From contig ONQE01000001.1 in NCBI GenBank assembly GCA_900319925.1, positions 8,452-72,451 on the forward strand: a stretch of DNA of 64,000 nt, read 5' to 3'. Source of the DNA: an uncultured Bacteroidales bacterium. GTDB taxonomy: Bacteria; Bacteroidota; Bacteroidia; Bacteroidales; WCHB1-69. The notes under the pieces are model-generated. The model searched no databases and had not been told where the DNA came from. It worked only from the letters and a program-made list of their open reading frames with translations. How positions within the stretch are numbered: the stretch's first letter is position 1; each line of letters begins with the position of its first letter. Below are positions 6,061-56,957 of this stretch, one piece after another. A program made the position numbers and the translations under genes.

Positions 6061-6081
6061 AGACTTAAGACTTGGGACTTA
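6061..6081. repeat. Heptamer array, family F (AGACTTA AGACTTG GGACTTA)
   Basis: Three clear units plus two degenerate ones extending to 6095. Contains the stop codon and last codons of ORF 6079-6657. Lies 36 nt upstream of the M16 start. Confidence 0.5.
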
Positions 6082-6657
6082 AGAGGGTTGGGATTCGTCC
6101 AGTAGCTCGTCGATTTCCTCGCTAAGCTCGTCGTAGCGTTTCGTCACCTCCCGGGTTCTTTTGCGACCAAAGGGACCATTTAAGAATCCAATCCATATAA
6201 TCATGGAGAAGCAGGCTATGCGGTCGTAAAAAAAGAGGAAAACTTCAGACACCAGAAACAAAATGATACCGATTATTCGGATGATGGTGCGTTTGCGCTT
6301 CGAGTAGGTCTTTAAACTTTCTCGCAGCGAGAGGAGACCTTCGCGGCTCTGCACGTCGGCCTTCCGGAGACCAATTATGGCGAAAAGGCTGTCAACCGCT
6401 ATCCAAACAAAGTACAGGTCGCACAAGAGGATAAGCCACCAAGGCCACTTGATGAGAGTGAGAGCGACGGTTAAGGCAATCGTGATGACTACAGCCGCTC
6501 CTGCGAGAAAAGCGTTTAGCCAGTAGAGTTCATTGCTGGACTGTTTCACCGTCTCCCGCCATGCGTCATTGTTGAAGCTGCTGTGCTGCTCCACATTCTG
6601 CTGCAGGTCGTGCAGTTCCTGCTGCAGTTCGCTTTTGATGTCTTCGTACTGTTCCAT
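6079..6657 (-). CDS. 4-TM membrane protein, putative ECF sigma partner (paralog 2)
   Basis: 192 aa with the same architecture as 2114-2683. The N-terminal 28 aa are identical, the membrane part has diverged, and the motif LRKAD.QSREGLLSLR is shared. Confidence 0.6.
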   Translation of the reverse strand: MEQYEDIKSELQQELHDLQQNVEQHSSFNNDAWRETVKQSSNELYWLNAFLAGAAVVITIALTVALTLIKWPWWLILLCDLYFVWIAVDSLFAIIGLRKADVQSREGLLSLRESLKTYSKRKRTIIRIIGIILFLVSEVFLFFYDRIACFSMIIWIGFLNGPFGRKRTREVTKRYDELSEEIDELLDESQPS

Positions 6658-7232
6658 ATCTGTCTTGAGGTTTAATCGGTGAATGATTTGAGTTTTTCGC
6701 GTATGCGCACCAGACGTACGCTGACGTTATCGACGGTGATGCCGAGGATGGCGGCAATCTCGTCGTAGGGCAGGTCTTCGAGCCAAAGCAGGATCAGTGC
6801 CCGGTCAAAGGGATGTAATTTCGCGATGCGCTTGTGCAGGCGGCTGGCGGCAGGACAGGCTTCCTCGTCGGCGAAGAGGTCGATGTCCATTTCCAGCGGC
6901 ATGCAGTCGGGACGGCGGCGGTGGCGTTTGTCGAGGGTCACGCAGGTGTTCAGCGCCACCCGATAGACCCACGTCTTGGCCGAGCTTCGCCCCTCAAAAC
7001 TGTCGATACCCTGCCAGAGGCGTATCAGCACCTCTTGGGCGAGGTCGTCCGCTTCTTGGCGGTCGTTGGCGAAGAGGTAGCACACCGAGTAGATGGTCTG
7101 CCGCTGCTCCTGCACTAACCGTTCGAAGTCGCGCTCTTTCTGTTCTTTGTCTTTTTTCTGCTTCATCTGTCAGACATTGTTTTCCTTTTGACTACGAAGG
7201 TAGCGAAAAACTACACCCTAAACTCAAAAAAA
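6571..7232. repeat. Direct repeat copy 2, paired with 2597-3252
   Basis: See copy 1. Confidence 0.85.
6672..7166 (-). CDS. ECF-type RNA polymerase sigma-70 factor (paralog 2)
   Basis: 164 aa. Differs from paralog 1 at 6 residues by hand count. Confidence 0.85.
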   Translation of the reverse strand: MKQKKDKEQKERDFERLVQEQRQTIYSVCYLFANDRQEADDLAQEVLIRLWQGIDSFEGRSSAKTWVYRVALNTCVTLDKRHRRRPDCMPLEMDIDLFADEEACPAASRLHKRIAKLHPFDRALILLWLEDLPYDEIAAILGITVDNVSVRLVRIREKLKSFTD

Positions 7233-7243
7233 TTGAATCTCCG

Positions 7244-9002: not shown

Positions 9003-10175
9003 TTATTTGATCCGTTCCACCACTTTCCAGTCGTCAATCAGCCGTTTCTCCGTATTGAAATTGATGCCGATCTTGGTAAACCCTTCCTCCACTTCGCGAT
9101 TGGGGAACCCCAAAGTGTAGGTGCCGAACTCAGGATCATAGCTCTCGATGGTGAGGTAGCCGCTTTGGAACAGCAGCGGCAGCGGGTTCTCGTCCATGAT
9201 TTCAATGCTGTTCAGTGTGTCAACAGTGAGTTCCTCGCGGGTCATGTCCTCAAGCAAGAAATTGGTCTTCAACAGCTGATGTACCAGAAACGTGGGTGTG
9301 CCCGTTTCGAACCAGTAGTCTTTGAACTGCCCGCTGGCTAATGTGCTCAATAGGCTGAACGGATTGTAAATCCCCACAGTGTCGGGCTGGAAATGGTAAC
9401 CGTCAAAATCGCGTTTCAGGCGGGCATAGCATTCGTCCTTCGTCATGTTGTTGGCGGTGGCAAGTTCGGCCACCCCTTCGTCAAAATTCGTCCGCAACTC
9501 CGCCTCGGAAATGCCGCAAATATCCACATAACGGCTATCCAACGAGATGTCAGTCAGATGGTTGAGGTCGCTAAAGACACTCACCTTGCCGAACTTGGTA
9601 ACTCCCGTGAGGAAGGCAAACTTGATATACTCATCGCAGCTCTTAAGATTACCGTAGAAGGCTTTCAGCGTGGATCGATAGTCCTCCTGCAACTCGGGAT
9701 TGCCAATGGCTTCGAGCATTGGTTTGTCGTATTCATCGACTAAAATGACCACCTTGCGACCGGTTATTTCGCAAGCCTTTTTGATGACGAAATAGAAACG
9801 CTCCTCAACGGCAAGATCGCGTTGGTCCAACCCGTATTTTTCCTCCCATTGTATCAGATATTTGTTCAGCTCTGCGTGCAAAGCGCTTACATCCGTGTAA
9901 TTCCTGGCATTCAAATCCAGATGCAGCACAGGGTATTCACCCCAATCTTTCTCCAATCCCGCGATAGCCAACCCCTCAAACAGTTCCTTTTTACCTTCGA
10001 AATAATCCTTCATGGTAGAGAGTAAGAGACTTTTACCGAATCTTCGCGGACGGCTGAGGCAGTAGTAACTTCCCGTTTCCGCCAACCAATAAATGGCGGC
10101 GGTCTTGTCCACGTATGCATATCCATTTCTTCTGATTTTCTCGAAATTTTGTATTCCTACAGGGTATTTTGTCAT
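9003..10175 (-). CDS. AAA-ATPase-like/PD-(D/E)XK (PF09820/PF08011-type) protein, probably internally deleted
   Basis: The N-terminus MTKYPVGIQNFEKIRRNGYAYVDKT...SRPRRFGKSLLLST is typical of the family. The protein is 390 aa, whereas I recall about 520 aa for this family. The sequence jumps from FPNREVEEGFTK directly to the family C-terminal IGINFNTEKRLIDDW. Confidence 0.6.
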   Translation of the reverse strand: MTKYPVGIQNFEKIRRNGYAYVDKTAAIYWLAETGSYYCLSRPRRFGKSLLLSTMKDYFEGKKELFEGLAIAGLEKDWGEYPVLHLDLNARNYTDVSALHAELNKYLIQWEEKYGLDQRDLAVEERFYFVIKKACEITGRKVVILVDEYDKPMLEAIGNPELQEDYRSTLKAFYGNLKSCDEYIKFAFLTGVTKFGKVSVFSDLNHLTDISLDSRYVDICGISEAELRTNFDEGVAELATANNMTKDECYARLKRDFDGYHFQPDTVGIYNPFSLLSTLASGQFKDYWFETGTPTFLVHQLLKTNFLLEDMTREELTVDTLNSIEIMDENPLPLLFQSGYLTIESYDPEFGTYTLGFPNREVEEGFTKIGINFNTEKRLIDDWKVVERIK

Positions 10176-11282: not shown

Positions 11283-12590
11283 TTATTCGGTGGCGGGTGA
11301 TTCGGGGTCGGGTGATTCGACATCGGGTGATTCGGGGTCGGGAGGCTCGGGGTTTTGGATGCCGTCGAGGATGTTGAGCATCTGGTCGCTGCGGCCGGCG
11401 TGGGCTTTGTTGTAGAGGTTGCTGAGGAAGACGATGACGACGTTGTCGGAGGGGCGGTAGAGGAACAGGTTCTGGAAGCCGTTCCAGAGGCCGCCGTGGT
11501 AGACCAGCTTGCCGTGCGTGGGACTCTCCTCGATGCGGTAGCCGTAGCCGTAGATGCTGGCCGGGAGTTTGCCGCCGTTCAGCTGGTTCTCGCGCTGCGA
11601 GGCGAGGTCCACCCACTCTTTCGGCAGGATTTTGTAGTCGATGAACATGGCGTTGGCCCAGCGGAGCATATCCTCCGCGTTAGAGTAGATGCCCTTGTCG
11701 CCGAGCACCCCGTTGAGCCGGTCGTATCTCGCGACAACGCCTCCCCTGCGGTGTCCGATGGCAATCGGTATATCCGACGGCAGTGCTTTCACACTCACAT
11801 CTTCCGCTTTCGGGTCCACATCGGCGTACTTCCTGCCGTGTTTGGCATCGATGCCCACGATTTCGGTGAAGAAGCAGGTGGCGTCCATCCCGGCAGGTTT
11901 GAAAATGTTCTCGTGCACATACTCTTCGAAGGGCATCCCGGAGACCTGCGCCACCAACGCCGCCAGAATCGCATAGTTGGTGTTCACATACTCGAACTTG
12001 GTACCCGTGGCGAAGGTCTTGGCATACTTCTGTTTCTCCAAAACCCGCAACAGATGCTCGTTATCCACGAACGCCGCCCCGCCATAGACCGTGTATTTGA
12101 ACTTGAAATATTCGGGGATGCCGGAGGTATGGGTCAGCAGATGCCGAATGGTGACACCGCGATAGGGAAGATTCGGGAAATAGTGCGTGATGGTGTCTTC
12201 CAAGTTGATTTTCCCCTGCGCGCAGAGCTGCAGCACCGCCACCGCGGTGAATTGCTTGGAGATGGAGGCCAAATCGAAGAGGGTGTTTTCCGTTATCTGG
12301 TTGTTCTCGGGAACATCGCGACGAGGCGGCTCACCGGTCAGGCGGAGTTCCCCGTAGGCATACTCGACCAGCACGGTGTCGCGCACTGCCACGAGCATCA
12401 CCCCATTGAGTTTTTCCGACATCTCGTTGGCCACAAATTCCAGCCCCTCAATGTCGTAACGGTCGCCGATGGTGTCCAACAGGTGTTGCCGGTAGCGCTC
12501 TTCCGTGAAAAAAGCCGTGTAGGTGTCCGCCTTGAGATTCACGACGAAGCACATAAACACGGCTATCGGGAACAAAAACTTCTTTAACAT
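11283..12590 (-). CDS. Serine hydrolase of the beta-lactamase (class C/PBP-like) family with a repeat-encoded acidic Pro-rich tail
   Basis: 435 aa. Signal peptide, SxxK motif (SISK) and YxN motif (YVN). The C-terminus PDPESPDVESPDPESPATE is encoded by a 15-bp tandem repeat. Confidence 0.8.
   Translation of the reverse strand: MLKKFLFPIAVFMCFVVNLKADTYTAFFTEERYRQHLLDTIGDRYDIEGLEFVANEMSEKLNGVMLVAVRDTVLVEYAYGELRLTGEPPRRDVPENNQITENTLFDLASISKQFTAVAVLQLCAQGKINLEDTITHYFPNLPYRGVTIRHLLTHTSGIPEYFKFKYTVYGGAAFVDNEHLLRVLEKQKYAKTFATGTKFEYVNTNYAILAALVAQVSGMPFEEYVHENIFKPAGMDATCFFTEIVGIDAKHGRKYADVDPKAEDVSVKALPSDIPIAIGHRRGGVVARYDRLNGVLGDKGIYSNAEDMLRWANAMFIDYKILPKEWVDLASQRENQLNGGKLPASIYGYGYRIEESPTHGKLVYHGGLWNGFQNLFLYRPSDNVVIVFLSNLYNKAHAGRSDQMLNILDGIQNPEPPDPESPDVESPDPESPATE
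11295..11354. repeat. 15-bp tandem repeat, 4 units (GGGTGATTCGGGGTC-like), inside a CDS
   Basis: Hand-parsed units at 11295, 11310, 11325 and 11340. Confidence 0.8.
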
Positions 12591-12603
12591 ATCGTAGTCA
12601 ATC

Positions 12604-12636
12604 TTCGACTTTGACGTTGACCTTTGACTTTGAACC
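12604..12636. repeat. Tandem array with 6-7 bp period (GACTTT GACGTT GACCTTT GACTTT GAACC), family F-like
   Basis: Read in the minus sense as AAGTCAA AGGTCAA CGTCAA AGTCGAA. It ends 14 nt upstream of the start at 12590. Confidence 0.6.
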
Positions 12637-12655: not shown

Positions 12656-12690
12656 TAACTGCTAACTACTAACTACTAACTGCTAACTAA
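12656..12690. repeat. Heptamer array, family A in reverse orientation (TAACTGC TAACTAC x2 TAACTGC TAACTAA)
   Basis: Five units ending 2 nt from the rho stop codon. Read in the rho sense it is AGTTAGC/AGTTAGT. Confidence 0.85.
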
Positions 12691-14718: not shown

Positions 14719-14806
14719 CAATATTTTTCGAAATACCAACACTTGTGGGAATTTTTTTATTTCACAACCCTATATCCCTGCCCATACATTTCAAGAAAAC
14801 AACCCC

Positions 14807-14883
14807 CTTAACTCTCAACCCTTAAACCTTAAACCTTAACCCATAACCCTTAACCCATAACCCTTAAACCTTAAACCTTAACC
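14807..14883. repeat. Heptamer array, family B (CTTAAAC/CTTAACC/CATAACC), 11 units
   Basis: Hand-parsed with perfect 7-nt phasing. Lies in the divergent rho/T9SS-gene promoter region. Confidence 0.9.
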
Positions 14884-14952
14884 CAAAATTATCAACATTT
14901 CACTATTAAGAATTTTTATGAAAAAAATTTGCCGAGGTTATGATAAAAACAG

Positions 14953-14960
14953 TATTTTTG
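14953..14960 (+). promoter_or_regulatory. -7 promoter box
   Basis: TATTTTTG, 48 nt upstream of the ATG at 15009. Confidence 0.55.
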
Positions 14961-15008: not shown

Positions 15009-16223
15009 ATGAAAAAACTTTACATGCTCATCATGGTTGCCTTAATTGCTGCAACCGCAAACGCGCAGGTCGTCAAAATGGAGGTCGGTGCGAATCAGGA
15101 TCGTCAACTGCCCATCAAGGGCATTGTGAAAGCTGATAAGAGTGCCCCTGCAGAGGGTTGGCTTTTCTATCAGGACTATCTGGAGTCTTACTTTGGTGAG
15201 ACTTGTAACGATGGCAGCGCCTTCTATTTGAAGAGCGACTCCCTGGGTCTTTACGAGTACAGCGACGGCGATTTCGACCACGCTTTCGTCTATTCTGTCA
15301 GCCAGACTTACGATTTCGAATCCGACTTCTTCGAGTATGCATCTATGAGCGGCGATATCTCTTTCAAGTACAGCCCCTCTTTGAATGTTGACTCCGCCTG
15401 CGTTTACACGATGTATCTTCGTGACGAGCAGATGCCCGCCGATGTGATGGATACGCTCGTCATCGGTTTCGTCGCTGACGATGATGCCCCTGCTTATTAC
15501 TACACATCCTATCCGGAAAGCAGCTGCTTCATCAACTTTGACTGGGATCCCAACACCGGTGTTCAGCAGAATGCCCAGGTTGTCAAGATTCCCCTTGGCC
15601 CCAACGATGTCAGCGAGCCTGCTACTGAGCCCAATTCCTATTATCTGAAATTATTCGAGGTTCCGTTGAACATCACCAATGTGACCGACAAACGTTGGAA
15701 CATCGCCTATACCTTCATTTCCGGTGAGAATCCCGCTTTGAACGACACCCTTCATTCCTCTTTCTCCCTCTACACCTTCAACAGCAATGACAACGAAGGC
15801 TACTCTCCCGCTTCCAACAACCCGAACATTTGCAACAACAGAAGCCACGGCGGTATGGTGCGTTCTTTCAGCAACGGTGATGTTGACTACTACTATCCCA
15901 TGTTCTTCTTTGACAACTACAACTTCCCGAAGAATCTGGGTCTGAAGATTTCCTGCACCAACTGTGAAATCGTGAATGTCCCCGAGCTGGAGAAGAACAA
16001 CCCGACCGTCTATCCAAATCCTGCCACCAACAACTTCACTGTCAACCTCGGCAATGACGAGAAGGCTAACATCGAGCTCTTCAACATCGTTGGCCAAATG
16101 GTGTACAGCGAGACCATCACCGGCAGCGCCCAAGTGAACGTCGCCAACCTCCACAGCGGTGTTTATATGCTCAAGGTGAACCAAAACGGCAAGGCCTACA
16201 CCACCAAAGTGGTTGTGAAATAA
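15009..16223 (+). CDS. T9SS-sorted secreted protein of unknown function
   Basis: 404 aa. Signal peptide and a C-terminal Por secretion tail (VYPNPATNNFTV...GVYMLKVNQNGKAYTTKVVVK). Confidence 0.8.
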   Translation: MKKLYMLIMVALIAATANAQVVKMEVGANQDRQLPIKGIVKADKSAPAEGWLFYQDYLESYFGETCNDGSAFYLKSDSLGLYEYSDGDFDHAFVYSVSQTYDFESDFFEYASMSGDISFKYSPSLNVDSACVYTMYLRDEQMPADVMDTLVIGFVADDDAPAYYYTSYPESSCFINFDWDPNTGVQQNAQVVKIPLGPNDVSEPATEPNSYYLKLFEVPLNITNVTDKRWNIAYTFISGENPALNDTLHSSFSLYTFNSNDNEGYSPASNNPNICNNRSHGGMVRSFSNGDVDYYYPMFFFDNYNFPKNLGLKISCTNCEIVNVPELEKNNPTVYPNPATNNFTVNLGNDEKANIELFNIVGQMVYSETITGSAQVNVANLHSGVYMLKVNQNGKAYTTKVVVK

Positions 16224-16246
16224 TTTTGTCTGATACAATATTCTAT

Positions 16247-16280
16247 AAAAAAGGGATGGTCGAGAGACTGTCCCTTTTTT
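16247..16280 (+). terminator. Intrinsic terminator
   Basis: AAAAAAGGGA...TCCCTTTTTT stem ending in a T-run, 24 nt after the stop codon. Confidence 0.65.
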
Positions 16281-16329
16281 AGTTAGCAGTTAGTAGTTAG
16301 CAGTTAGCAGTTAGTAGTTAGTAGTTATA
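16281..16329. repeat. Heptamer array, family A (AGTTAGC/AGTTAGT), 7 units
   Basis: Hand-parsed. Starts immediately after the terminator T-run. Confidence 0.9.
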
Positions 16330-16344
16330 CACTAGCGAGAAACC

Positions 16345-16445
16345 CCATAACCCATAAGCCATAAGCCATAACCCATAACCCATAAGCCATAAACCATAAA
16401 CCTTAACCCATAAACCATAACCCTTAAACCTTAAACCTTAAACCA
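16345..16445. repeat. Heptamer array, family B (CCATAAC/CCATAAG/CCATAAA/CCTTAAC/CCTTAAA), 14 units plus a partial unit
   Basis: Hand-parsed. The last partial unit (CCA) directly abuts the folP ATG at 16446. Confidence 0.9.
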
Positions 16446-18229: not shown

Positions 18230-19555
18230 ATGCTTGCGCGATTTCTCCAGGAACTTCAACGTCTGGCGGGAGCTGACGCCCTGCGGAAATGCTACCTCGT
18301 GGCGGTGAGCGGCGGTGCGGATTCGACCGTCGCGGCTACACTCTTCCATGAGGCTGGACTGCATTTCGCGATGGCGCACTGCAACTTCCACCTGCGCGGC
18401 GCCGACTCCGACCGTGACATGCGATTCGTGCAGGAGATGGCCGAACGCTGGAATGTACCGCTCCTCGTCCGCGAGTTCGACACCTTCTCCGTACAGCGGG
18501 ACTCTGGGAAATCCATCGAGATGGTGGCCCGCGAGCTGCGATACGACTGGTTCTCGGAGATCTTGTCCGGCTACGACCACCTCGTGACCGCCCACCACGC
18601 CACCGACGCCGCCGAAACCCAACTACTCAACCTCACCCGCGGCACCGGACTGAGAGGGCTTTGCGGCATCCCGTCCGTGAACGGGAAAACCATCCGCCCG
18701 ATGCTGTCCTTCACGGCACAGGAAATCCGCCAATACGCTGAGGATCATCATATTGCATACGTTGAAGATTACACCAACCGCGACGAGCATATCGCCCGCA
18801 ACCGCATTCGCCACTCCGTCATTCCGCAATTGGAGGCGATCAATCCGCAGTTCCTACAGACCAACACGCGCACACGTCAAGTTCTGCAACGGCAATACGA
18901 ATATTATCAGAAACATATAGCGGCCGAGATACGGAATATCACCAGCAAAGAGGGTCGGCAGCTTCGCATTGACCGCCAGAAGCTGGCCCACAATGAGGAT
19001 AAAACCTTGATACTCTACGAAATACTGAACGAATACGGTTTCACCGCCGATGCTGTGGAGAAAATTGCGGCCAACGACCAGATGCCCGTAGGCAGATATT
19101 TTTCTTCCGATTCTCACAGATTGCTGATTGACAGGGAATTCTTGATTCTTCAACCTCAATTGGAAGAAAAGGAGCATATCCCGATTGAAATAGGCTCATT
19201 GGAAGACCTGAAAGCTTATTTTCAAGTTGAAGAATTTGATTATCAAGAGGGTATGGTCTTCGATAAAAACCCGAAGATCCTTTATATTCCGAAAGACAAG
19301 TTGACCTTCCCGCTGGAAATCCGGTCCTGGCAGCACGGCGACTCCTTCCACCCTCTTGGCGGAAAAGGCCGCCAGAAAGTCAGCGACTTTTTCACCGACC
19401 ATAAGATAGACCGCTTCGCCAAAGAACGCATCCGTCTTCTTTGTTCAGGCGACAACATACTATGGATCATCGATTTACGTTCCGATGAACGATTCAAAGT
19501 GACACCCAAAACCGAAAGGTACTACCGGTTAAGTCCATTGGCTGTTGGCCATTAA
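18230..19555 (+). CDS. tilS: tRNA(Ile)-lysidine synthetase
   Basis: 441 aa with the PP-loop SGGADSTV. Confidence 0.85.
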   Translation: MLARFLQELQRLAGADALRKCYLVAVSGGADSTVAATLFHEAGLHFAMAHCNFHLRGADSDRDMRFVQEMAERWNVPLLVREFDTFSVQRDSGKSIEMVARELRYDWFSEILSGYDHLVTAHHATDAAETQLLNLTRGTGLRGLCGIPSVNGKTIRPMLSFTAQEIRQYAEDHHIAYVEDYTNRDEHIARNRIRHSVIPQLEAINPQFLQTNTRTRQVLQRQYEYYQKHIAAEIRNITSKEGRQLRIDRQKLAHNEDKTLILYEILNEYGFTADAVEKIAANDQMPVGRYFSSDSHRLLIDREFLILQPQLEEKEHIPIEIGSLEDLKAYFQVEEFDYQEGMVFDKNPKILYIPKDKLTFPLEIRSWQHGDSFHPLGGKGRQKVSDFFTDHKIDRFAKERIRLLCSGDNILWIIDLRSDERFKVTPKTERYYRLSPLAVGH

Positions 19556-19579
19556 ACCTTAAACCCTAAACCTTAAACT
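19552..19579. repeat. Heptamer array, family B (TTAAACC x2, CTAAACC, TTAAACT)
   Basis: Four units. The tilS stop (19553-19555) lies inside unit 1, and the array ends 2 nt before the sufS ATG. Confidence 0.85.
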
Positions 19580-19581: not shown

Positions 19582-20784
19582 ATGAATAGAAACGATTTTC
19601 CCATATTGAATGAAAAGGTGTACGGCAAAACCCTCGTCTATTTAGACAATGCCGCCACCACGCAGAAGCCGCAAGTGGTGATTGACGCGCTGAGCGACTA
19701 CTACCGGCGCATCAACAGCAACATCCATCGCGGCGTGCACTGTCTCAGCCAGTTGGCGACCAACGAGTTCGAGCAGGCGCGCGAGGCGGTGCGGCAGTAC
19801 ATCCACGCAGCCTCGACACAGGAGGTCATTTTCACGCGCGGCGCGACCGAGTCCATCAATTTGGTGGCAGCCTCCTTCGGGCGCACCTACCTGCACGCGG
19901 GCGACGAGGTCATCGTTTCCGAAATGGAGCACCACTCGAACATCGTGCCGTGGGAGTTGGCCTGCGAGGACCGCGGCGCGACGTTGAAAGTGCTGCCGTT
20001 CAACGATAAAGGGGAGCTGATGCTCCGGGAATTGGAGACCCTGATAACCGAGCGCACCAAGATTGTGGCCGTGGCGCACGTCTCCAACTCGTTGGGCACC
20101 GTCAACCCGATTGAGGAGGTCATCCGCATCGCGCACAGCCACAATGTACCCGTCCTTATCGACGGAGCGCAGGCCGTAGCGCACTGTCCTGTGGATGTGC
20201 AGGCCCTCGACTGCGACTTCTACTGTTTCTCCGGCCACAAGATGTACGCCCCGATGGGTATCGGCGTAATGTACGGCAAAGCGCAGTGGCTCAACGAGAT
20301 GCAACCGTATCAAGGGGGTGGTGAGATGATCAAGGACGTCACCTTCGAGAAGACGACCTACAACGAGCTGCCCTACAAATTCGAGGCGGGCACCCCGTCG
20401 GTGGGCGATGTCATCGGGCTGCGCAAGGCCATCGAATACATCGGGGGCATCGGGCTGGCAAACATTGCTGCCCACGAGCAGGAGCTGTTGGCATACACCA
20501 CGGAGAAGCTGGCGAGAATCGACGGGATGCGCTTTATCGGCGAGGCGTCGCACAAAACGGGGGTCATCTCGTTCCTCGTGGGCGACACCCATCCCTACGA
20601 TATGGGCGTACTCCTTGACCATCAAGGTATTGCAGTTCGCACGGGACATCATTGCACCCAACCGGTGATGACCCATTTCGGTATTCCCGGCACCATCCGC
20701 GCCTCCTTTGCCCTTTACAACACCTTTGAGGAGGCGGATGCGCTCGTGGATGCGGTCGTGAAAGCGAAAAATATGCTTTCTTGA
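19582..20784 (+). CDS. sufS: Cysteine desulfurase, SufS family
   Basis: 400 aa. PLP-lysine context FSGHKMYAP and active-site RTGHHCTQP. Confidence 0.85.
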   Translation: MNRNDFPILNEKVYGKTLVYLDNAATTQKPQVVIDALSDYYRRINSNIHRGVHCLSQLATNEFEQAREAVRQYIHAASTQEVIFTRGATESINLVAASFGRTYLHAGDEVIVSEMEHHSNIVPWELACEDRGATLKVLPFNDKGELMLRELETLITERTKIVAVAHVSNSLGTVNPIEEVIRIAHSHNVPVLIDGAQAVAHCPVDVQALDCDFYCFSGHKMYAPMGIGVMYGKAQWLNEMQPYQGGGEMIKDVTFEKTTYNELPYKFEAGTPSVGDVIGLRKAIEYIGGIGLANIAAHEQELLAYTTEKLARIDGMRFIGEASHKTGVISFLVGDTHPYDMGVLLDHQGIAVRTGHHCTQPVMTHFGIPGTIRASFALYNTFEEADALVDAVVKAKNMLS

Positions 20785-20837
20785 TTAGTGATTAGTGATT
20801 AGTGATTGGTGATTTGTGACTTGTGATTTGTGATGAA
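20782..20837. repeat. Heptamer array, family C (TGATTAG x3, TGATTGG, TGATTTG, TGACTTG, TGATTTG, TGATGAA)
   Basis: Eight units. The first TGA is the sufS stop codon, and the last units contain the GTG/ATG start of the next gene. Confidence 0.9.
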
Positions 20838-24700: not shown

Positions 24701-24860
24701 CTCTAACTCTTGTTCAACTCTTGTTCAACTCTGGTCTAACTCCGATGTAACTCCGATGTAACTCCGATACAACTCCGATCAAACTCCGATATAACTCCGA
24801 TACAACTCCGATCAAACTCCGATCAACTCCGATCAAACTCCGATCAACTCCGATACAGCT
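24701..24860. repeat. 11-bp tandem array (CCGATNNAACT type), about 15 units
   Basis: Hand-parsed. Three leading CTTGTTCAACT/CTGGTCTAACT units are followed by CCGAT(GT/AC/CA/AT)AACT units. Two units are 10 bp. Confidence 0.9.
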
Positions 24861-24942: not shown

Positions 24943-25146
24943 ATGAAAAAGAGACTGAAACTTGGACTTATTGTTTGCGTATTATTGTGTATATCAACAT
25001 CTTGCGCAAGAAAGATCAGCGGTGCCACCCCGCACCGTCGCGACCGCAACTGCGGCTGCGAGAACCTTTACCCAATGTACAATTTACAATGTACAATGTA
25101 CAATTTACAATGTACCAATCACTATTCACTAATCACCAATCACTAA
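24943..25146 (+). CDS. Possible small lipoprotein-like upstream ORF (67 aa)
   Basis: MKKRLKLGLIVCVLLCISTSC looks like a signal peptide with a lipobox-like end. The C-terminal third is encoded by heptamer arrays. Its stop overlaps the next ATG (TAATG). Nearly leaderless relative to the promoter box, so coding status is uncertain. Confidence 0.25.
   Translation: MKKRLKLGLIVCVLLCISTSCARKISGATPHRRDRNCGCENLYPMYNLQCTMYNLQCTNHYSLITNH
25074..25115. repeat. Heptamer array, family D (AATGTAC/AATTTAC), 6 units
   Basis: Hand-parsed. Confidence 0.9.
25117..25144. repeat. Heptamer array, family C in reverse orientation (AATCACT ATTCACT AATCACC AATCACT)
   Basis: Four units running into the ATG at 25146. 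Confidence 0.85.
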
Positions 25147-25898
25147 TGAAGAAACTACTGTTACTGATAACCGCCGCCCTCATGCTCGCGGCGTGCGGCG
25201 ACCGGAAGACCTCCGTGGTCATCTCGGGCGATATCCAAGACGGTGGCAACAGCAAGATGGTGTTGGCGCTCATCACGACCGACGGATTGAACTTTCTGGA
25301 TTCCACCAACTTGAAGAACGGGCATTTTGAGTTCAAGGTCTCCTCCGACAACGAGCTGGTCAAGGAGCGCGATAACGCCCCGATGCTGTTCCAATTGTTC
25401 CTTTCTGACGACAACTGCCTGTCCACGATGGCCAAAAAGGGCGAGCGTCTGACCATCACCGCCGACGCGAAGGACTTGACCCGCACTTACCACATCTCCG
25501 GCGGCGAGGAGGCGGTGCTGATGCAGCAGTTAGACAGCGCGCTGACCGCCTTTGTGGTTCCTGTGGAGAAACTGCTCGAACCCTACAACGAGAACATTCA
25601 GAATGACTCGGTCCGGGCGGCCATCGAAGCCCAATATGTGCCGATGGTGCAACGGCATCGGCAATATTTAGAGGATTTCATTAAAGAGCACCCGAACAAT
25701 ATGGCCAGCTATATCGCTTTCTACCAGAGCTATAACCGGCGGACTTTCTTCGATCCGCTGCAGGATTTGGAGCTGCTGAAACAGATCAACGCCAACATGT
25801 CGAAGATATACCCCGAGAGCGAATATGTGAAAACGATGATTCATGTGGCGGAGATGATGGAGTCTCGGCAACCCGCCGAACCATCCACACCAAAATAA
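25146..25898 (+). CDS. Lipoprotein, DUF4369-like N-terminal domain
   Basis: MKKLLLLITAALMLAACGD (lipobox). The ORF-track extension back to 24936 is read-through of repeat DNA. Confidence 0.6.
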   Translation: MKKLLLLITAALMLAACGDRKTSVVISGDIQDGGNSKMVLALITTDGLNFLDSTNLKNGHFEFKVSSDNELVKERDNAPMLFQLFLSDDNCLSTMAKKGERLTITADAKDLTRTYHISGGEEAVLMQQLDSALTAFVVPVEKLLEPYNENIQNDSVRAAIEAQYVPMVQRHRQYLEDFIKEHPNNMASYIAFYQSYNRRTFFDPLQDLELLKQINANMSKIYPESEYVKTMIHVAEMMESRQPAEPSTPK

Positions 25899-27456: not shown

Positions 27457-28060
27457 GAACGGGGAAAGTTGATACTTTGCCACAGAGACCCCTTCGGAGA
27501 AATCCGTCGGGGTCTTTTATCACCTCTGCGGGATCTTCCGGGATTCTCTGTTTGCGGGCAACAGCCAGTACACTCTCCTTATCATTGCTCATAAGCAGAC
27601 GTTCATAAAGCATGGAATTGATTTGCCGCTCCGTTTCACGTGCCGTCCATGCATTGTTGACCGATTCCAACTCATAATACTCCCGCTTGTCGGCATCCTC
27701 AATCTGAATCAGCCTACTATATTGACTCCAATTCAATTGCGAACGCACTGTGTTCGCAATTGGGTAGGTTCTGTAAAACTGACGGCTTTGTTCTAATTGG
27801 CGCACACTGAAACCACCCCCATATTCAGATGTCAAACGCTTCGAAAGGTTCTTGATGATGTACTTGCCATAGTCTGCTCGCTCTTTCCCTTGCTGCTCTT
27901 CTTCAAAGATACGCTTCCCTATGTTCCAATACATCTGCACGCGACAGAAAACAACGCTACGCACGGCATTACTGCGAGCGTTTTCGATTATCCGACAGGC
28001 ATCTTGATAAAGCGTGTCAATAGATTCAATTTTCACAAGTTCAGCCTCGTTCTTTTTCAT
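27419..28060 (-). pseudogene. YhcG/DUF1016-type PD-(D/E)XK nuclease gene, 3'-truncated
   Basis: The N-terminal roughly 185 aa match what I recall of DUF1016 (YWNIGKRIFEEEQQGKERADYG...GGFSVRQLEQSRQFY). The nuclease half is missing. The ORF tail runs through the guaA terminator and 38 nt into guaA. Confidence 0.55.
27486..27519 (+). terminator. Intrinsic terminator of guaA
   Basis: AGACCCC...GGGGTCT stem with an inner CGGA/TCCG helix, followed by TTTTAT. Confidence 0.6.
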
Positions 28061-28085
28061 CTCTAAATTTTTAAGTTGTTGCCTG

Positions 28086-28093
28086 CAAAGTTA
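28086..28093 (-). promoter_or_regulatory. -7 promoter box
   Basis: Minus strand reads TAACTTTG, 25 nt upstream of the start at 28060. Confidence 0.5.
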
Positions 28094-47346: not shown

Positions 47347-47766
47347 ATGATAGAGATTTTACTTACTGATTTGAACAATGAGAATTTTTACAGGGAGACG
47401 CTGAAAACTATCGAATCCATTTGCGATGAGTATTCGATAGGGGAGCATTTCGGTACGTTGTCCATGGCCAACCAGATGATATGTGACTATCTAGAGTCGA
47501 AGTCATCTGTTGTAGCGAATGTGGCGTTTCGTATCGACAGTGATGAAGTGTCATTTGACTATTCTTTGACGAATGGCGACTTCAGTTCCTTCTCCCAGGG
47601 TGATGAAGCGGATAACACAAGTATGTTCGTCTTGAGACGTCTGGCGGATGAGGTTTCCTTTTCAACTGATTATGATACCCTTACAACCACTTTCCACGTG
47701 AAAACAAAAATGACGGTCCATAGAAATCCGCAACGAGTGGCTGTAAAATCTAAAATCTTCAGTTGA
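47347..47766 (+). CDS. Hypothetical protein (139 aa)
   Basis: ORF in operon context. No family recognised. Confidence 0.45.
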   Translation: MIEILLTDLNNENFYRETLKTIESICDEYSIGEHFGTLSMANQMICDYLESKSSVVANVAFRIDSDEVSFDYSLTNGDFSSFSQGDEADNTSMFVLRRLADEVSFSTDYDTLTTTFHVKTKMTVHRNPQRVAVKSKIFS

Positions 47767-49285: not shown

Positions 49286-51163
49286 ATGAGGGACTGTTAC
49301 GATATCATAGTGGTGGGTGCAGGTCATGCGGGATGCGAGGCCGCCGTTGTTTCGGCCAAGCTTGGGAACAGTGTTCTTCTCATTACGATGAACCTTGCCC
49401 TCGTGGCGCAGATGTCGTGCAACCCGGCTATTGGAGGTATCGCCAAAGGACAAATTGTTCGCGAAATAGATGCGTTGGGTGGTATGACGGGTATTGTGAC
49501 CGACCATACCATGATCCAGTACCGAATGCTCAACCGTTCGAAGGGACCCGCTATGTGGAGTCCGAGGGCACAGTGCGACAAAACAGCCTTTTCCTTGTAT
49601 TGGAAACATATTCTTGAAAATACTCCTAATCTCCATCTTCGTCAAGATACCGTGACCGAATTGTTATTTGATGCGGATAGGGTCATTGGCGTCAAGACGC
49701 AATTGGGTAAGACTGTTCTCTCAAAGAAAGTCATTCTCACTAACGGTACTTTTTTGAACGGACGTATTCATGTCGGGGAGGTTAATTTTTCCGGCGGTAG
49801 GATAGGGGAGAGTGCTTCTTTCATTTTGTCCGACCAATTGAAAGAGCGTGGCATCGTTACGAAAAAACTCAAAACCGGAACCCCTGTCCGAATTGATGGA
49901 CGGACTGTCGATTTCTCCAAAATGGAAGAACAACCCGGTGAAAACCCTCCGGGACGTTTTTCGTTCACCAATACCCCTCCTCTTCACCGGCAGCTCAGTT
50001 GCTGGATTACCTATACCAACGAGCAAGTACACCAAGTACTCCAAAAGGGTTTCGAAAAGTCCCCTATGTTCCAGGGACGCATCCAAGGTGTGGGTCCCCG
50101 TTATTGTCCGTCCATAGAAGATAAAATCGTTCGTTTCGCTGACCGTACACGTCACCAACTCTTTCTTGAACCGGAGGGACGCAATACAAATGAATATTAC
50201 CTCAACGGTTTTTCCTCCTCTCTTCCTGAAGATATTCAGGTGGAGGCCCTCCATCTGATTCCTGGATTGGAACAAGCCGAGATATACCGTCCGGGTTATG
50301 CCATCGAGTATGACTATTTCGACCCGATGCAGTTGCGTTATACGCTTGAATCGAAAATTATCGGAAACCTTTATCTTGCCGGACAGGTGAACGGAACCAC
50401 CGGTTATGAGGAGGCGGCGTGTCAAGGACTCATGGCAGGCATCAACGCACATCTCTCCCTTGCCGAAAAAGATCCTTTGATTTTGACCCGTTCACAGGCT
50501 TACATCGGTGTGCTCATTGACGATCTGATTACGAAAGGTGTCCAGGATCCCTATCGCATGTTCACTTCGCGAGCTGAATACCGCATTTTGTTGCGACAGG
50601 ACAATGCCGACCAAAGGCTTACTCCGATAGGCAATCAGTTGGGTCTGATTGATGCGGAACGCTATGAGGAATTTCTCCACAAATACGATCTGCAGACGCA
50701 AATCACCGACTACCTTCGAAGCCATACTACCCACTTTCAAACGCTCAATGAGCTGCTCGTTAAACGGGAAACTTCTCCCTTGAATCAAAATGTCAAATTG
50801 GAAAATGTATTGCTCCGTCCCCAAATCTCCATTCAGGATCTGATGGATTATGATCGTGAGTTTGCCTATTTCCTGCAACAGATTGGTGCCGATTCAGAAC
50901 AGATTACCAACGCCGAAACGAGTATAAAATACAGCAGCTATATTCAGAAGGAGGAAGAAATGGTGCAACATCTCACCAATCTCGATGCTATTAAGCTGCC
51001 TCTCGATTTGGATTATCCAAACATCAATTCTTTGTCGAAAGAGGCGCGTGAAAAGCTGTCCAAACTCCAACCCGCAAATCTGGGGCAAGCCTCTCGCGTC
51101 AGTGGTGTGAGTCCAGCCGATATTACCGCACTGATGATTTATCTTAGGACTTGTGATTTGTGA
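49286..51163 (+). CDS. mnmG: tRNA uridine 5-carboxymethylaminomethyl modification enzyme MnmG (GidA)
   Basis: 625 aa. FAD motif [12 protein letters not shown]. The last codons and the stop lie inside a heptamer array. Confidence 0.95.
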
Positions 51164-51313
51164 TTTGTGATTAGTGAGGTGTGATTTGTGATTTGTGAAT
51201 TGTGATTTGTGATTTGTGAATTGTGATTTGTGATTAGTGAGGTGTGATTAGTGAGGTGTGATTAGTGAGGTGTGATTAGTGAGGTGTGATTAGTGAGGTG
51301 TGATTAGTGGTAG
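51153..51313. repeat. Heptamer array, family C (GTGATTT/GTGATTA/GTGAGGT/GTGAATT), 23 units
   Basis: Hand-parsed and contains no C at all. It ends in six copies of the 14-mer GTGATTAGTGAGGT. The mnmG stop (51161-51163) is inside unit 2. Confidence 0.9.
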
Positions 51314-53981: not shown

Positions 53982-54203
53982 ATGAAATAATTCACAAGGG
54001 TCTTGAAAATCGTCCAATTCCCTCACATATAATCCGTCTAATTCCCTCACAAAGGATTCAAAACAATCCATATTTTCAATATATTGATAATCAATATTTT
54101 ATTATATGATTTAAATCCTTTTGAAGTGTATGGTCTGTCATATTTCAGGCGTGAATGAAAATATTTTCGGGTGTGAGGGATATAAAAGTGTCGCAGAAGA
54201 TAG

Positions 54204-54211
54204 TATCTTTG
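54204..54211 (+). promoter_or_regulatory. -7 promoter box
   Basis: TATCTTTG, 34 nt upstream of the ATG at 54246. Confidence 0.55.
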
Positions 54212-54245
54212 CCGCCAAAAACTGATATAATTGATTGATTCCGTT

Positions 54246-56957
54246 ATGAAAAAGTTGTGTATTATCCAATGGTTGATGTTGATTTCAATTCTAACTGTTG
54301 TGGCACAGGAGCCTGCTCTTCCCTACACGGCCACTTTTTCCACGTCGGAAGGGTGGGTGCTGAACAATGGTGATGCTCAGAATTATTGGATATTAGGTAC
54401 CTCTGGCAGTAACAATGCACTCCTTGTGACCAACAACGGCGCCACCCCCACCTATTCCTACACCCGGAGTAATGTCGCTGCCGAAAAGACATTTGTGGTC
54501 GGGGATGCTGACAAGATTATTGTCTCTTTCGATCTGAAATGCGGCGGCAAGTACAACAAAGACTTTCTGAAGATGTTTTTGGCGCCTCCTTCCCAGATCT
54601 ACGAGGGTGGAATCGCCTACTCGTGGGGTGTCAGCACGGATTCCGTCTATGCGGCCAACTTCAGCGACCACTTCGATATGACCAACACGCCAAACTATCC
54701 TTATATTATCAATTTGACAGATGGCCAAACTATCCATTTGGATGTTCGGATGAACAATCCGATTGCCAATCCCGATACCAACTCAATTGCAAAACTGGTT
54801 TTTGGATGGGTTAATGACTACGGCAGCACTTACGATCACGGAATCCAGCCCGCACCTACCATCACCAATTTGCGTTTGAAAAGAGAGACCTGTACCCCTC
54901 TTACCGGATTGTCCGTCTCCAACATCCAGAGCCATTCAGTAGAGTTGTCGTGGAATATGCCTGAGGGTGGTGCCTCTGACTATATTGTCCAATATGCTAA
55001 AGATGGCCAGAATTGGAACGATGCCTATATCACCACCGTGAACGTGCAGGACACGTCTGTGACGTTGACTGGTTTGCAGTCTATAACGAAATATTGGGTA
55101 AGGGTGGCACGCAATTGCGGTAGCGATACCAGTGTCTGGATCAAACAATCGTTCACTACACTTTGTGAATATATTGACACCCTTCCGTACATCTGCGACT
55201 TATCTCATGTCTCAAGCACTATGCATCCGATTCCTGTTTGTTGGGAAAGAGGCCCAGGAAGCTGCTGCGACCCTGTTATTAGCTATGGTGCTATCAATCT
55301 TTGGATTCCCAACACCATCTCGATGCCGCATTTGAACAGACAGCTCATTGATATAAATACCGTGGAGGTTTCCTTTTCCGCCAGAAGTGAAACGAACAAT
55401 GGCACCTTGATCATTGGTGTGATGACCGATGCCAGTGCAGACTCTACGTTTGTGGCTGTTGACACGCTAAGCCTGACTACATCATACGAGTCTTATGTGG
55501 TTCCGATAAACGGCTACACCGGAGTTGGTGACAGAGTCTCTTTCAAATGTATCGACCACAGCGACATATACGTGAAAGATGTGATCCTTGACTATACGCT
55601 TTCGTGTCCAAGGCCATACGATTTGGAATCGTCCAGTCCTACGCATAACAGTATTGATTTGAGTTGGACGGGAACGAGTTCTTCCTGCAATGTTTACTAT
55701 AAAGCGGATGGTGATGCATCCTATTCGGTGGCATCCAATATTACGGCGGGTGTCGGTCAGCCGTTCACCTTGTCGGGATTGGCTTCCAGTACAATTTATC
55801 AGTGGTATGTGGCGGCTCAGTGCTATGACAGCACCGAAGCAGCAAGCCACGAGCTCAGCTTTTTCGAGACCCTTTGCGACCCCATCAACCAACTGCCTGT
55901 GACGTGGGACTTTGAATACTATAATAATGAAACAAAGATGCCTTTGTGTTGGAAAAACATAGGTGATGCAGATATTAGAGAGGGGAATGCCCATAGCGGG
56001 ACGCATTCAATGCGTTTATACAGCAATAATTCTCCGTGTTTTGTTGTGTTGCCAAAAGTGGAAAATAATCTATATCCTATTGATAATATGCAAATTAGAT
56101 TCTTTGCAATGAATACGGGTACGGTTAGCGATTTTCATGTTCGAGTCATTGGCGGGGTGATTACGAATCCGGAAAACAGTGCTACCTTTATTCCTAACGA
56201 TACAATAGATGTGATTGGTGCGGCAGGTGGAAGTTTCCAGGAATATACGTTACGATTATCTGACTATTACTATTACCCCAATGATGCCTATCCTGCGATA
56301 AAGTTTGTGGGAATTAACGGTACATGGCTTTTGATAGATGACCTTACTTTGGAAGTCGTTGATTCGACCCTTCTTCCAGACTGTCCTTCGTTGACAACTC
56401 TGGAGACAACCAATATTAGTCAGACGACTGCCACGCTGAATGCTGCCTTTGAAAATCCTGACAACATGTCTGTCTCTGCCGTGGGATTCAAATGGAAGGA
56501 TATTTCGAGCAGTGCCTATACGCAGGTTGATTGTTCCGTCTCGAATAACGTTTTTGCGACCGAACTGGACGGTTTGACTGCCAATACAACTTACGCATAC
56601 AAAGCATTTGTCACTTACTACGGAATAACAGTTCTCAGTGAGGAAACAATCTTCACCACCCTGCCCGAAAATGACACCATCGAAGACCATGTTGAAGAGT
56701 ATTTGCTAAGCAGCATCAAGCTATATCCCAATCCGGCAAATGAGTATATCGATGTACAATGTACAATGAACAATGTACAATTGGAGGGCATTGAGGTGAT
56801 AGATGTTTACGGCAAGGTAGTCCATGCCATTGTAGGGGCGAATAATCATTCGCTCCTACAGACCCGCATCAACATTTCAGGATTGGCCGGTGGCATCTAT
56901 TTTGTGCGCGTGACCACCGACAAAGGTGTGGTAATAAAGAAATTTGTGAAGAAATAA
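54246..56957 (+). CDS. Large T9SS cargo protein with alternating FN3-like and LPY..F (choice-of-anchor-J-like) modules
   Basis: 903 aa. Signal peptide, three FN3-like segments (for example LSVSNIQSHSVELSWN...YWVRVARNCG) and CTD LYPNPANEYIDV...GIYFVRVTTDKGVVIKKFVKK. Confidence 0.75.
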   Translation: MKKLCIIQWLMLISILTVVAQEPALPYTATFSTSEGWVLNNGDAQNYWILGTSGSNNALLVTNNGATPTYSYTRSNVAAEKTFVVGDADKIIVSFDLKCGGKYNKDFLKMFLAPPSQIYEGGIAYSWGVSTDSVYAANFSDHFDMTNTPNYPYIINLTDGQTIHLDVRMNNPIANPDTNSIAKLVFGWVNDYGSTYDHGIQPAPTITNLRLKRETCTPLTGLSVSNIQSHSVELSWNMPEGGASDYIVQYAKDGQNWNDAYITTVNVQDTSVTLTGLQSITKYWVRVARNCGSDTSVWIKQSFTTLCEYIDTLPYICDLSHVSSTMHPIPVCWERGPGSCCDPVISYGAINLWIPNTISMPHLNRQLIDINTVEVSFSARSETNNGTLIIGVMTDASADSTFVAVDTLSLTTSYESYVVPINGYTGVGDRVSFKCIDHSDIYVKDVILDYTLSCPRPYDLESSSPTHNSIDLSWTGTSSSCNVYYKADGDASYSVASNITAGVGQPFTLSGLASSTIYQWYVAAQCYDSTEAASHELSFFETLCDPINQLPVTWDFEYYNNETKMPLCWKNIGDADIREGNAHSGTHSMRLYSNNSPCFVVLPKVENNLYPIDNMQIRFFAMNTGTVSDFHVRVIGGVITNPENSATFIPNDTIDVIGAAGGSFQEYTLRLSDYYYYPNDAYPAIKFVGINGTWLLIDDLTLEVVDSTLLPDCPSLTTLETTNISQTTATLNAAFENPDNMSVSAVGFKWKDISSSAYTQVDCSVSNNVFATELDGLTANTTYAYKAFVTYYGITVLSEETIFTTLPENDTIEDHVEEYLLSSIKLYPNPANEYIDVQCTMNNVQLEGIEVIDVYGKVVHAIVGANNHSLLQTRINISGLAGGIYFVRVTTDKGVVIKKFVKK
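56752..56779. repeat. Heptamer array, family D (ATGTACA x2, ATGAACA, ATGTACA), inside a CDS
   Basis: Encodes VQCTMNNVQ within the T9SS sorting domain of the 54246-56957 gene. Confidence 0.8.

Follow-up and report, generated by a model that had tools for sequence, protein, structure and literature searches.

What keeps tandem repeats of a 7-nt unit at the gene junctions of an uncultured rumen bacterium, and do such arrays serve the neighbouring genes or are they merely tolerated beside them? The question arises from a stretch of 64,000 nucleotides (nt) of an uncultured Bacteroidales bacterium of the WCHB1-69 lineage (assembly GCA_900319925.1, contig ONQE01000001.1, positions 8,452 to 72,451), hereafter called the window, in which positions are counted from the first letter. 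An inspection of the letters (the original prediction) had reported families of strand-consistent heptanucleotide arrays at the gene junctions and had considered translation leaders, Rho loading sites, frame-closing insulators and contingency tracts as their roles. According to our follow-up analysis, the arrays are best understood as slippage-driven heptameric microsatellites, which are tolerated in spacers after the 3' ends of genes and filtered in their orientation by effects on the transcript level, an interpretation to which we assign a probability of roughly 0.6.

Tandem Repeats Finder and an independent autocorrelation period scan agree on 13 period-7 arrays with approximately 98 units and 669 nt in the window, i.e. 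about 1% of its total and about 11% of its intergenic DNA, which bears out the at least 13 arrays and roughly 100 units predicted. The same period scan returned zero segments in the window for periods 4-6, 8-10 and 13, and none of 50 simulated Markov-1 windows contained any period-7 array. The arrays thus have the properties of heptanucleotide long simple sequence repeats (SSRs), i.e. head-to-tail units of 5-11 nt that extend further than chance allows. Twelve of the 13 arrays are situated outside called genes, i.e. in 9.4% of the window (binomial P = 6e-12), hence the non-coding bias of the heptamer SSR class is present as well. The units belong to family A (AGTTAGY), family B (CCATAAV/CCTTAAA), family C (GTGATTT/GTGATTA/GTGAGGT/GTGAATT), family D (CAATGTA/CAATTTA) and a few others. 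Several families do exist as had been stated; the family C unit GTGATTA is the reverse complement of the AATCACT unit at 25117, one unit being present in both orientations. The strict 7-nt phasing was confirmed except at 12603-12633, where the period is an irregular 6/7 nt. Each array is close to a three-letter sequence, with a G content of 0-3% in family B and the AATCACT arrays and a C content of 1-6% in families A and C (1-2% in family C), in agreement with the predicted composition. Stop codons close all three frames in 8 of the 13 arrays, but the family D arrays and the irregular array at 12603 contain no stop codons, contrary to the proposed rotation of stops through the frames. Clustered regularly interspaced short palindromic repeats (CRISPR), iterons and miniature inverted-repeat transposable elements (MITEs) were considered and dismissed, since there are no unique spacers between the repeats, no terminal inverted repeats and too many units for one binding protein.

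The position at gene junctions is equally clear. The stop codons of sufS (TGA, 20782-20784), tilS (TAA, 19553-19555), mnmG (TGA, 51161-51163) and of the open reading frame (ORF) 6079-6657 are located inside arrays and that of rho is 3 nt away from one, while the start codons of folP (16446), sufS (19582), a short-chain dehydrogenase/reductase (SDR) gene (20833) and a DUF4369 lipoprotein gene (25146) are directly reached by arrays, all as predicted. The identities of rho, folP, tilS, sufS, the SDR gene, guaA, mnmG, rubrerythrin, a protein sorted by the type IX secretion system (T9SS) and two large fn3/T9SS proteins near the arrays were confirmed. Two details had to be corrected. The array at 56752 does not mark a junction, it forms an in-frame part of a genuine T9SS C-terminal domain, whereas the array-bearing ORF 24943-25146, formerly labelled a fragment of such a domain, is a small lipoprotein-like ORF.

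The mode of mutation becomes visible when strains are compared. Dozens of independent rumen metagenome contigs encode exactly the FolP, MnmG and DUF4369 proteins of the window, and their DNA is 97-99.7% identical to it. The arrays are present in these strains too, with different unit numbers. In front of folP, the window has 7 units of family A where other strains have 5, and about 14 units of family B where they have about 19; the spacer between rho and the T9SS gene differs by 21 nt, and the anchored stretch around the mnmG array measures 170, 177, 191 (window), 216 or 219 nt beside an identical MnmG protein. Step-of-7 alleles next to unchanged proteins, at mnmG those of 170, 177, 191 and 219 nt, show slippage-type mutation, and the comparison of strains, which the original prediction had recommended, supports its view of the arrays as slippage-prone. 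In addition, strains L001-L007 lack the arrays at 25073-25147 and have in their place unique sequence of about 150 nt, along with other initial codons of the DUF4369 gene, despite 97-98% overall identity, indicating that arrays are also gained or lost together with adjoining sequence. The strain alleles and the exchange of units at the folP junction (see below) amount to the length and sequence variation that is typical for heptamer SSRs. Could all this be an artefact of assembly or sequencing? N gaps inside the longest array in two assemblies and an irregular 4-nt unit in one assembly indeed show that long arrays are hard to assemble. However, identical arrays between identical flanks recur on more than 20 contigs that were assembled independently from different samples, orthologous arrays occur in the genomes of more than 15 other species, and arrays shorter than the read length also differ by exact multiples of 7. 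Hence, the arrays are not artefacts, the chance of this being practically negligible, and the concern that they might reflect faulty assembly, voiced along with the prediction, is not borne out.

The distribution of the arrays was studied by a FolP search with one genome per species, which covered about 30 metagenome-assembled genomes of uncultured rumen Bacteroidales and 50 other Bacteroidota. The density of period-7 arrays per 10 kb was 2.0 for the window and 2.4 for the 16 species closest to it, but dropped to 0.26 for the 14 species that follow and was 0.34 for the other Bacteroidota, and period 7 was the commonest or joint-commonest period in every group scanned. Of the co-directional spacers 29% contain arrays and of the convergent ones 27%, but the share is no more than 7% for divergent spacers; the arrays constitute 15-16% of the co-directional and convergent spacer DNA in the clade. 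At the T9SS-folP junction, a terminator-like hairpin is conserved and followed by a variable heptamer-array insert with units that differ by species (CCATAAV, CGCAAAT, AATAACC, AACAGCT or ATAAACT); sometimes palindromes resembling repetitive extragenic palindromic (REP) elements are found there instead, and array-less sister species have a spacer of 66 nt. Beyond the clade, a metagenome scan for (AGTTAGY)4 returned at least 120 contigs, and the 136 metagenome and viral loci that were fetched spanned a GC content of 0.19-0.69 among the matches listed. AGTTAGY arrays were found on 16 viral contigs, compared with 3, 26 and 9 for three scrambled heptamers of the same composition. Scrambled heptamers are therefore about as frequent, which makes the unit vocabulary look composition-driven, and the idea of family A as a specially favoured motif was abandoned.

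The orientation of the arrays is clearly not random, as had been predicted. In the window and 30 related loci, arrays nearest to a start codon have more C than G in the sense of the gene (21:4), those nearest to a stop codon more G than C (37:16; Fisher P = 9e-6). Read on either strand, co-directional and convergent spacers begin G/T-rich and continue C/A-rich (P = 4e-4 after removal of duplicates), and the same order was found in other Bacteroidota (P = 0.03). Among the matches listed, the metagenome and viral loci gave AGTTAGY in sense after stops in 66:15 and its complement in sense before starts in 18:9 cases (P = 7e-6), and 166 other heptamer arrays on the same contigs gave ratios of 37:8 and 39:18 (P = 3e-7). 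The claim that family A follows stop codons in sense in three of three cases thus holds as a rule, namely at 66 of these 81 independent loci, but one of its three examples falls away, because no ORF of at least 30 amino acids (aa) ends at 29042. The bias amounts to 70-85% and is not absolute. Approximately two thirds of all arrays are nearest to a stop codon and mostly show the opposite polarity to the start-proximal ones, while C exceeds G in sense in 15 of the 16 arrays whose end is no more than 15 nt from a start codon (window and relatives together). With 42% A and 13% G upstream of starts, the background composition accounts for the bias on the start side. Replication-strand asymmetry was rejected as the cause, since both polarities occur side by side on one strand within single spacers; the original prediction had proposed to compare the orientation with the replication direction. 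The polarity and the depletion of divergent spacers that characterise the heptamer SSR class are thus both found here.

These observations can be assembled into the following scenario. Heptanucleotide microsatellites, i.e. long SSRs, have proliferated in one uncultured rumen Bacteroidales lineage, where their length changes in whole 7-nt units, the signature of strand slippage or unequal exchange, and an array stays at one junction across species while its unit sequence turns over. They are found after the 3' ends of genes and are nearly absent from divergent (promoter) spacers and coding sequences, probably because they are purged where reading frames break or promoter geometry shifts. Position and polarity would then result from selection on their effects on neighbouring genes and not from a dedicated function. 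Beside start codons, only a G-poor, A-rich and structure-free version would be tolerated, which matches the ordinary initiation region with its 42% A and 13% G; initiation in Bacteroidia is Shine-Dalgarno-independent and tuned by mRNA structure (Baez 2019, PMC6847099). The preference for the C-poor strand after stop codons might, as the simplest guess, serve to keep Rho from loading on spacer RNA that is not translated, and effects of the unit number on expression, if there are any, would be a by-product. The persistence at one junction with turnover of units, the gain and loss together with flanking sequence, the exclusion from genes and divergent spacers and the lack of a special motif all fit the ordinary dynamics of microsatellites when purifying selection acts on the neighbouring genes. 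How the arrays mutate, where they occur and which way they point follows directly from the comparisons described above, while the selective filter is what we infer from them.

Several points weigh against this interpretation. Judged by eye from the spacer sequences, arrays are present at the T9SS-folP junction in 13 of 17 related species (two of them weak), and such persistence could mean maintenance by selection, beyond mere inheritance. The G>C bias after stop codons does not follow from the background, which has 19% G and 20% C there, and this explanation had to be rejected; the bias implies a further selective or mutational force apart from background composition or the constraint on initiation regions. 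The near-total lack of one base in arrays of up to 166 nt also looks more like design than tolerance. Furthermore, genes were called from ORFs and the counts lack phylogenetic independence, and arrays longer than the assembly k-mer, such as the one at 51144-51309, may have mis-assembled copy numbers in short-read contigs.

Among the rival explanations, a role in polar Rho control deserves attention although we consider it improbable. C-poor RNA leaving a gene would be a poor Rho substrate, whereas G-poor, C-containing and unstructured RNA entering a gene from either side would offer a loading site, with the consequence that untranslated or antisense transcription into the gene is terminated, ribosomes that load at the nearby start codon rescue the sense transcripts and the unit number tunes the loading. 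The polarity is indeed dyad-symmetric in co-directional and convergent spacers, and the start-less convergent spacers are as array-rich as the co-directional ones, while divergent spacers, which receive no transcript from upstream, are poor. A C-rich, G-poor and unpaired composition is classically ascribed to Rho utilization (rut) sites. The array composition fits this description, for example in the folP leader array (101-144 nt, 35% C, 3% G, predicted unpaired), and the window harbours a full-length rho gene. Moreover, the same polarity in Shine-Dalgarno-using Xanthomonas and Nostoc suggests a universal cause such as Rho. However, many arrays have just 30-45 nt, less than the approximately 60-80 nt that Rho is thought to need; this rut length is reached by 16345-16445 and 14805-14884, whereas most other G-poor arrays measure 27-45 nt, and no transcript appears to cover the array at 14805-14884. 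The strong intrinsic-terminator-like hairpin before family A at 16281 means that little RNA may reach that array, and the orientation bias is not absolute. An even wider version, in which three-letter heptamer arrays would generally serve as orientation-dependent gene-boundary marks for the transcription machinery via Rho, the G-poor strand would give a loading pad that a loading ribosome alone could neutralise, and slippage would retune termination and coupling at each junction, appears still somewhat more doubtful to us. The array composition would also be compatible with the idea of frame-closing insulators. The G-poor arrays before start codons might alternatively be selected as structure-free, A/C-rich translation leaders for Bacteroidia ribosomes with a length set by the unit number, as MacGregor 2015 (PMC4679880) proposed similarly for TAACTGA repeats. 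The prevalence of C>G directly before starts, predicted folding energies at or near zero, the agreement with the composition of the general initiation region and the lack of ATG in start-adjacent arrays, which corresponds to the AUG depletion near starts (Baez 2019, PMC6847099), speak for it. Nevertheless, divergent spacers contain two 5' leaders and are the poorest in arrays (7% vs 27-29%), the majority of arrays is nearest to a stop and mostly of opposite polarity, the array at 14805-14884 is upstream of a promoter, the window start codons beside arrays lack the favoured A at -3 (preference according to Baez 2019, PMC6847099), sister species manage with a 12-15-nt leader at the folP junction, and the polarity is the same in Shine-Dalgarno-using bacteria (PMC4692102). 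The leader role suggested earlier is thereby weakened and we regard it as unlikely.

The use of the arrays as contingency loci, in which slippage of the unit number would switch or grade the expression of neighbouring surface proteins, is far less probable. Unit numbers are polymorphic within the species, some neighbours encode T9SS cargo or lipoproteins (15009-16223, 25146-25898 and 54231-56957) and the small ORF 24943-25146 reads through two arrays. But, the neighbours are mostly housekeeping genes (rho, folP, tilS, sufS and mnmG), no array is placed between promoter elements, and none is so placed in a frame that a protein of any size would be cut short by a shift of 7 nt, the sole array in a large gene being in frame and short. 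The array with the greatest variation (51144-51309) comes after mnmG, about 260 nt upstream of the likely -7 box of the next gene, and Rehm 2015 (PMC4692102) came to a likewise negative result for Xanthomonas. Except for family D, the arrays stay outside coding frames, so that the contingency role put forward originally has little in its favour. Similarly slight is the chance that the arrays act as palindromic REP-like or terminator-like elements, in which paired inverted arrays form hairpins that stabilise or terminate transcripts. In the relatives, the left G/T-rich and the right C/A-rich arrays of one spacer are often reverse complements, and such pairs are predicted to fold into long hairpins (z = -3.3 to -8 relative to shuffled sequences), with z = -8 also obtained for L014 14144-14222; inverted AGTTAGY/RCTAACT pairs occur in metagenome contigs, and 70-75 inverted pairs are known per Xanthomonas genome (Rehm 2015, PMC4692102). 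In contrast, none of the nine array clusters of the window folds better than shuffled sequences (z = -1.2 to +1.6), and z values below -3 are confined to 7 of the 63 clusters of the clade. The majority of the arrays stand alone and are predicted to be unpaired, in line with the unstructured RNA that had been expected for the window. Pairing between two arrays of one window spacer was considered and rejected as well, because the arrays stay unpaired in the predictions, in which the sole strong structure is the terminator-like hairpin.

The individual arrays illustrate how differently the junctions are equipped. On the minus strand, the array at 6061-6084 (AGACTTA x3.4, TAAGTCY in the sense of the flanking minus-strand genes) holds the stop codon of ORF 6079-6657 and is located 35 nt upstream of the start of ORF 5249-6025; the same TAAGTCY family forms a 5-unit array in the relative L012. 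The window contains two paralogous regions of the sigma-70 family (2550-3232 and 6456-7231), which one stretch of L001 matches at 91% and 93%. Between the sigma-70 gene and the LytTR gene (window 7231-7233), other strains carry an insertion of about 970 nt with a PIN_3 toxin and a 93-aa partner (L001:759-1728), which the window lacks. Another difference of about 950 nt concerns a gene of 390 aa that is full-length at 9003-10175, whereas other strains have just a 73-aa remnant (L001:3499-3720) with AAA-ATPase-like and PDDEXK_9 matches.

The irregular 6/7-nt array at 12603-12633 (minus strand, GTCAAAG/GTCAAC in gene sense) sits upstream of the beta-lactamase-like gene 11283-12590, at a distance of 12 nt from its start, and the orthologous site in L011 and L015 is occupied by regular heptamer arrays. 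This gene has its own 15-nt repeat of 3.9 copies in frame at the 3' end (11285-11342). In the same spacer, a minus-strand family A array (12656-12689, TAACTAC x4.9, AGTTAGY in rho sense) begins 3 nt past the rho stop codon and has 4 units and other unit variants in other strains. In other strains, the spacer between rho and the beta-lactamase-like gene has an inserted REP-like palindrome (CCCCAC..GCGGCTTACGCC..GTGGGG, L002:6040-6170) that the window does not have; relatives carry either one copy of it or three in tandem, of about 57 nt each, including in the folP-upstream spacers of L011 and L015. The longest ORF of rho starts at 14693, while the calls in other strains and the protein alignment favour a start at 14606 (MSDETLN..., 637 aa), and its N-terminus contains an insertion of approximately 260 K/P/E-rich residues before the conserved Rho domains. 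Differences in the annotated Rho length (666, 637 and 608 aa) were suspected to reflect in-frame repeat variation, but they result from different start calls of otherwise nearly identical proteins.

The divergent spacer between rho and the T9SS gene harbours a G-free plus-strand array of about 11 units (14805-14884, CCTTAAM/CCATAAC), which has 3 more units (21 nt) in other strains. A search for the Bacteroidetes-type promoter TTTG..TAnnTTTG gave two full matches only, and the single one near an array is found at 14928-14960, i.e. the array is situated upstream of the promoter and is probably not transcribed. A scan with sigma-70 promoter and terminator consensus sequences was discarded, since the sites were no commoner than in shuffled sequence and the consensus is unsuited to Bacteroidetes promoters. 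An Rfam scan of the whole window detected one tRNA only, and no known RNA family overlaps any array. Directly after the T9SS gene follows a stretch that is conserved clade-wide (16224-16281), consisting of the motif TTTTGnCTGATACAATATT and then an A-tract, a hairpin and a T-tract. The hairpin with its flanking A and T tracts (16246-16281, plus strand) is terminator-like, and the family A array (16281-16327, plus strand, AGTTAGY x6.7; 5 units in other strains) starts within the T tract. Next is the family B array at 16345-16445 (plus strand, CCATAAV/CCTTAAA x14.4), which abuts the folP ATG at 16446 and has about 5 extra units in other strains. No canonical promoter for folP was found between the structure at 16224-16281 and its start codon.

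Further downstream, all arrays with an assigned orientation belong to the plus strand. A family B array of 3.9 units (19552-19578) fills the 26-nt spacer between tilS and sufS and is identical in all strains compared. The family C array at 20782-20834 (TGATTAG/TGATTTG x7.6, 2% C) opens with the TGA of sufS and reaches the SDR start codon, with two strain alleles of 61 and 45 nt. The two arrays in front of the DUF4369 lipoprotein gene are a family D array (25073-25115, CAATGTA/CAATTTA x6.1), which is stop-free in every frame and encodes the tail of ORF 24943-25146, and a G-free array (25117-25147, AATCACT x4.4) that runs into the ATG at 25146. ORF 24943-25146 starts with a lipoprotein-type signal peptide (MKKRLKLGLIVCVLLCISTSC...) and its last approximately 24 codons consist of the AATGTAC and AATCACT arrays, whereas in strains L001-L007 it ends in unrelated unique sequence. 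Another kind of repeat precedes this ORF, a tandem array of about 14 units of 11 nt (AACTCCGATNN, 24702-24857) with a 33-nt higher order, which is placed between the gene of a ComF-like phosphoribosyltransferase and the small lipoprotein-like ORF and is followed by a CCCC..GGGG hairpin; the anchored stretch with this array measures 148, 160 or 181 nt among strains.

The family A array at 29042-29073 (AGTTAGC x4.6) is located in a gene-poor, low-GC and strain-variable stretch. This stretch (27400-30300, GC 0.42) contains a DUF1016 fragment and an ATPase/PDDEXK-like gene, its counterpart in one strain has a nucleotidyltransferase/HEPN pair, and its appearance is that of a small island, variable between strains, with defence or mobile genes. 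A trivial array of 2.1 units is present at 47744-47758. The longest array (51144-51309, GTGATTT/GTGATTA/GTGAGGT/GTGAATT, about 24 units, 1% C) includes the TGA of mnmG and shows a higher order of 14 and 42 nt. Finally, the family D array at 56752-56781 (ATGTACA x4.3) is part of the T9SS C-terminal sorting domain of ORF 54231-56957, where it encodes DVQCTMNNVQL in an fn3 protein of 908 aa; the neighbouring paralogue is 4 residues shorter at this site.

With this finding, the few bacteria known to have heptamer-packed spacers are joined by a lineage of uncultured rumen Bacteroidales (11-16% of the spacer DNA). In practical terms, the arrays are ready strain-typing markers for rumen metagenomes and at the same time a cause of contig breaks and scaffold gaps. 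The polarity rule, C-poor when leaving and G-poor when entering a gene, applies within the clade as well as to other Bacteroidota and to metagenome contigs of mixed origin; according to Rehm 2015 (PMC4692102), it also applies to Xanthomonas and Nostoc. A boundary-marking system with the same polarity across these groups, if true, would represent a widespread and so far unrecognised regulatory layer. If the polarity reflects Rho loading or transcription-translation coupling, the question is testable with reporters in which arrays are inverted or resized.

How do these arrays relate to known repeats? For Xanthomonas and Nostoc, heptamer repeats with the units GGGAATC and GGGGAYT were described, which are to 68-93% intergenic and close to the upstream ORF, with the G-rich strand as coding strand downstream of ORFs and as non-coding strand upstream of them (Rehm 2015, PMC4692102). 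According to the same study, convergent inverted pairs are frequent in Xanthomonas, the repeats are under-represented between divergent ORFs and vary in length, their neighbours belong to all functional classes and no function was identified. The window arrays share the 7-nt unit, the intergenic bias (about 90%), the polarity at ORF ends, the inverted pairs, the rarity between divergent ORFs and the functional variety of the neighbours with these repeats. They differ in their A/T-rich units without G tracts, though some relatives have GGGTTGA-type arrays, in the many unit families within one genome instead of one dominant unit, and in their uncultured rumen Bacteroidales host. Without G tracts in the units, the idea of G-quadruplexes is not applicable to the window. 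An excess of heptanucleotide long SSRs and polymerase slippage as its possible origin are attributed to Mrazek 2007 in the citations of Rehm 2015 (PMC4692102) and MacGregor 2015 (PMC4679880).

The original prediction knew of no description of such repeats in Bacteroidota, but there is a precedent, because MacGregor 2015 (PMC4679880) reported that TAACTGA and other heptamers form direct repeats between the genes of Beggiatoaceae, of cyanobacteria and also of five Bacteroidetes. There, TAACTGA is often found just upstream of start codons in one orientation and occasionally after stop codons in reverse, and other heptamer arrays share spacers in Gramella, Aequorivita and Elizabethkingia (MacGregor 2015, PMC4679880). 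Read on the opposite strand, family A (TAACTGC/TAACTAC) differs from TAACTGA by one base, but no tandem TAACTGA with up to one mismatch was detected in the window, and family A never stands before a start codon there. Among the matches listed, the preference for the forward orientation upstream of starts is likewise not the prevailing pattern, with 66 of 81 stop-proximal loci in reverse and 18 of 27 start-proximal loci in forward orientation. Moreover, the array density is far above that in the five described Bacteroidetes, and the scrambled controls argue against a special motif in our case.

The short tandemly repeated repetitive (STRR) elements of heterocystous cyanobacteria are similar in being dispersed tandem heptanucleotides of several families, mostly non-coding and strain-variable, and have been used for fingerprinting. 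Their units are CCCCAGT, TTGGTCA and CAACAGT. No unit of the window matches these and the host, with its T9SS domains and with rumen Bacteroidales metagenome-assembled genomes as the source of its closest loci, is a Bacteroidales bacterium, not a cyanobacterium; look-alikes with one mismatch (CAACAGC and ATGGTCA) exist in relatives, none of them in the window. With the phase-variable loci of Haemophilus and Neisseria, the arrays share the slippage-driven change of unit number between close strains, but the unit has 7 nt here and 1-5 nt there, the neighbours are mainly housekeeping genes, and the arrays are outside reading frames (except for family D at 56752-56781 and in the tail of ORF 24943-25146), none of them between promoter elements. 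REP-like palindromes are not seen in the window clusters, whereas some orthologous spacers of relatives contain them. Hence, the arrays of the window are members of the heptamer SSR class that was already described in Xanthomonas, cyanobacteria, Beggiatoaceae and some Bacteroidetes, and they display every defining feature of this class that could be tested. New are the lineage in which they occur, their high density, the coexistence of many unit families and the replication of the polarity rule, which held in three further samples.

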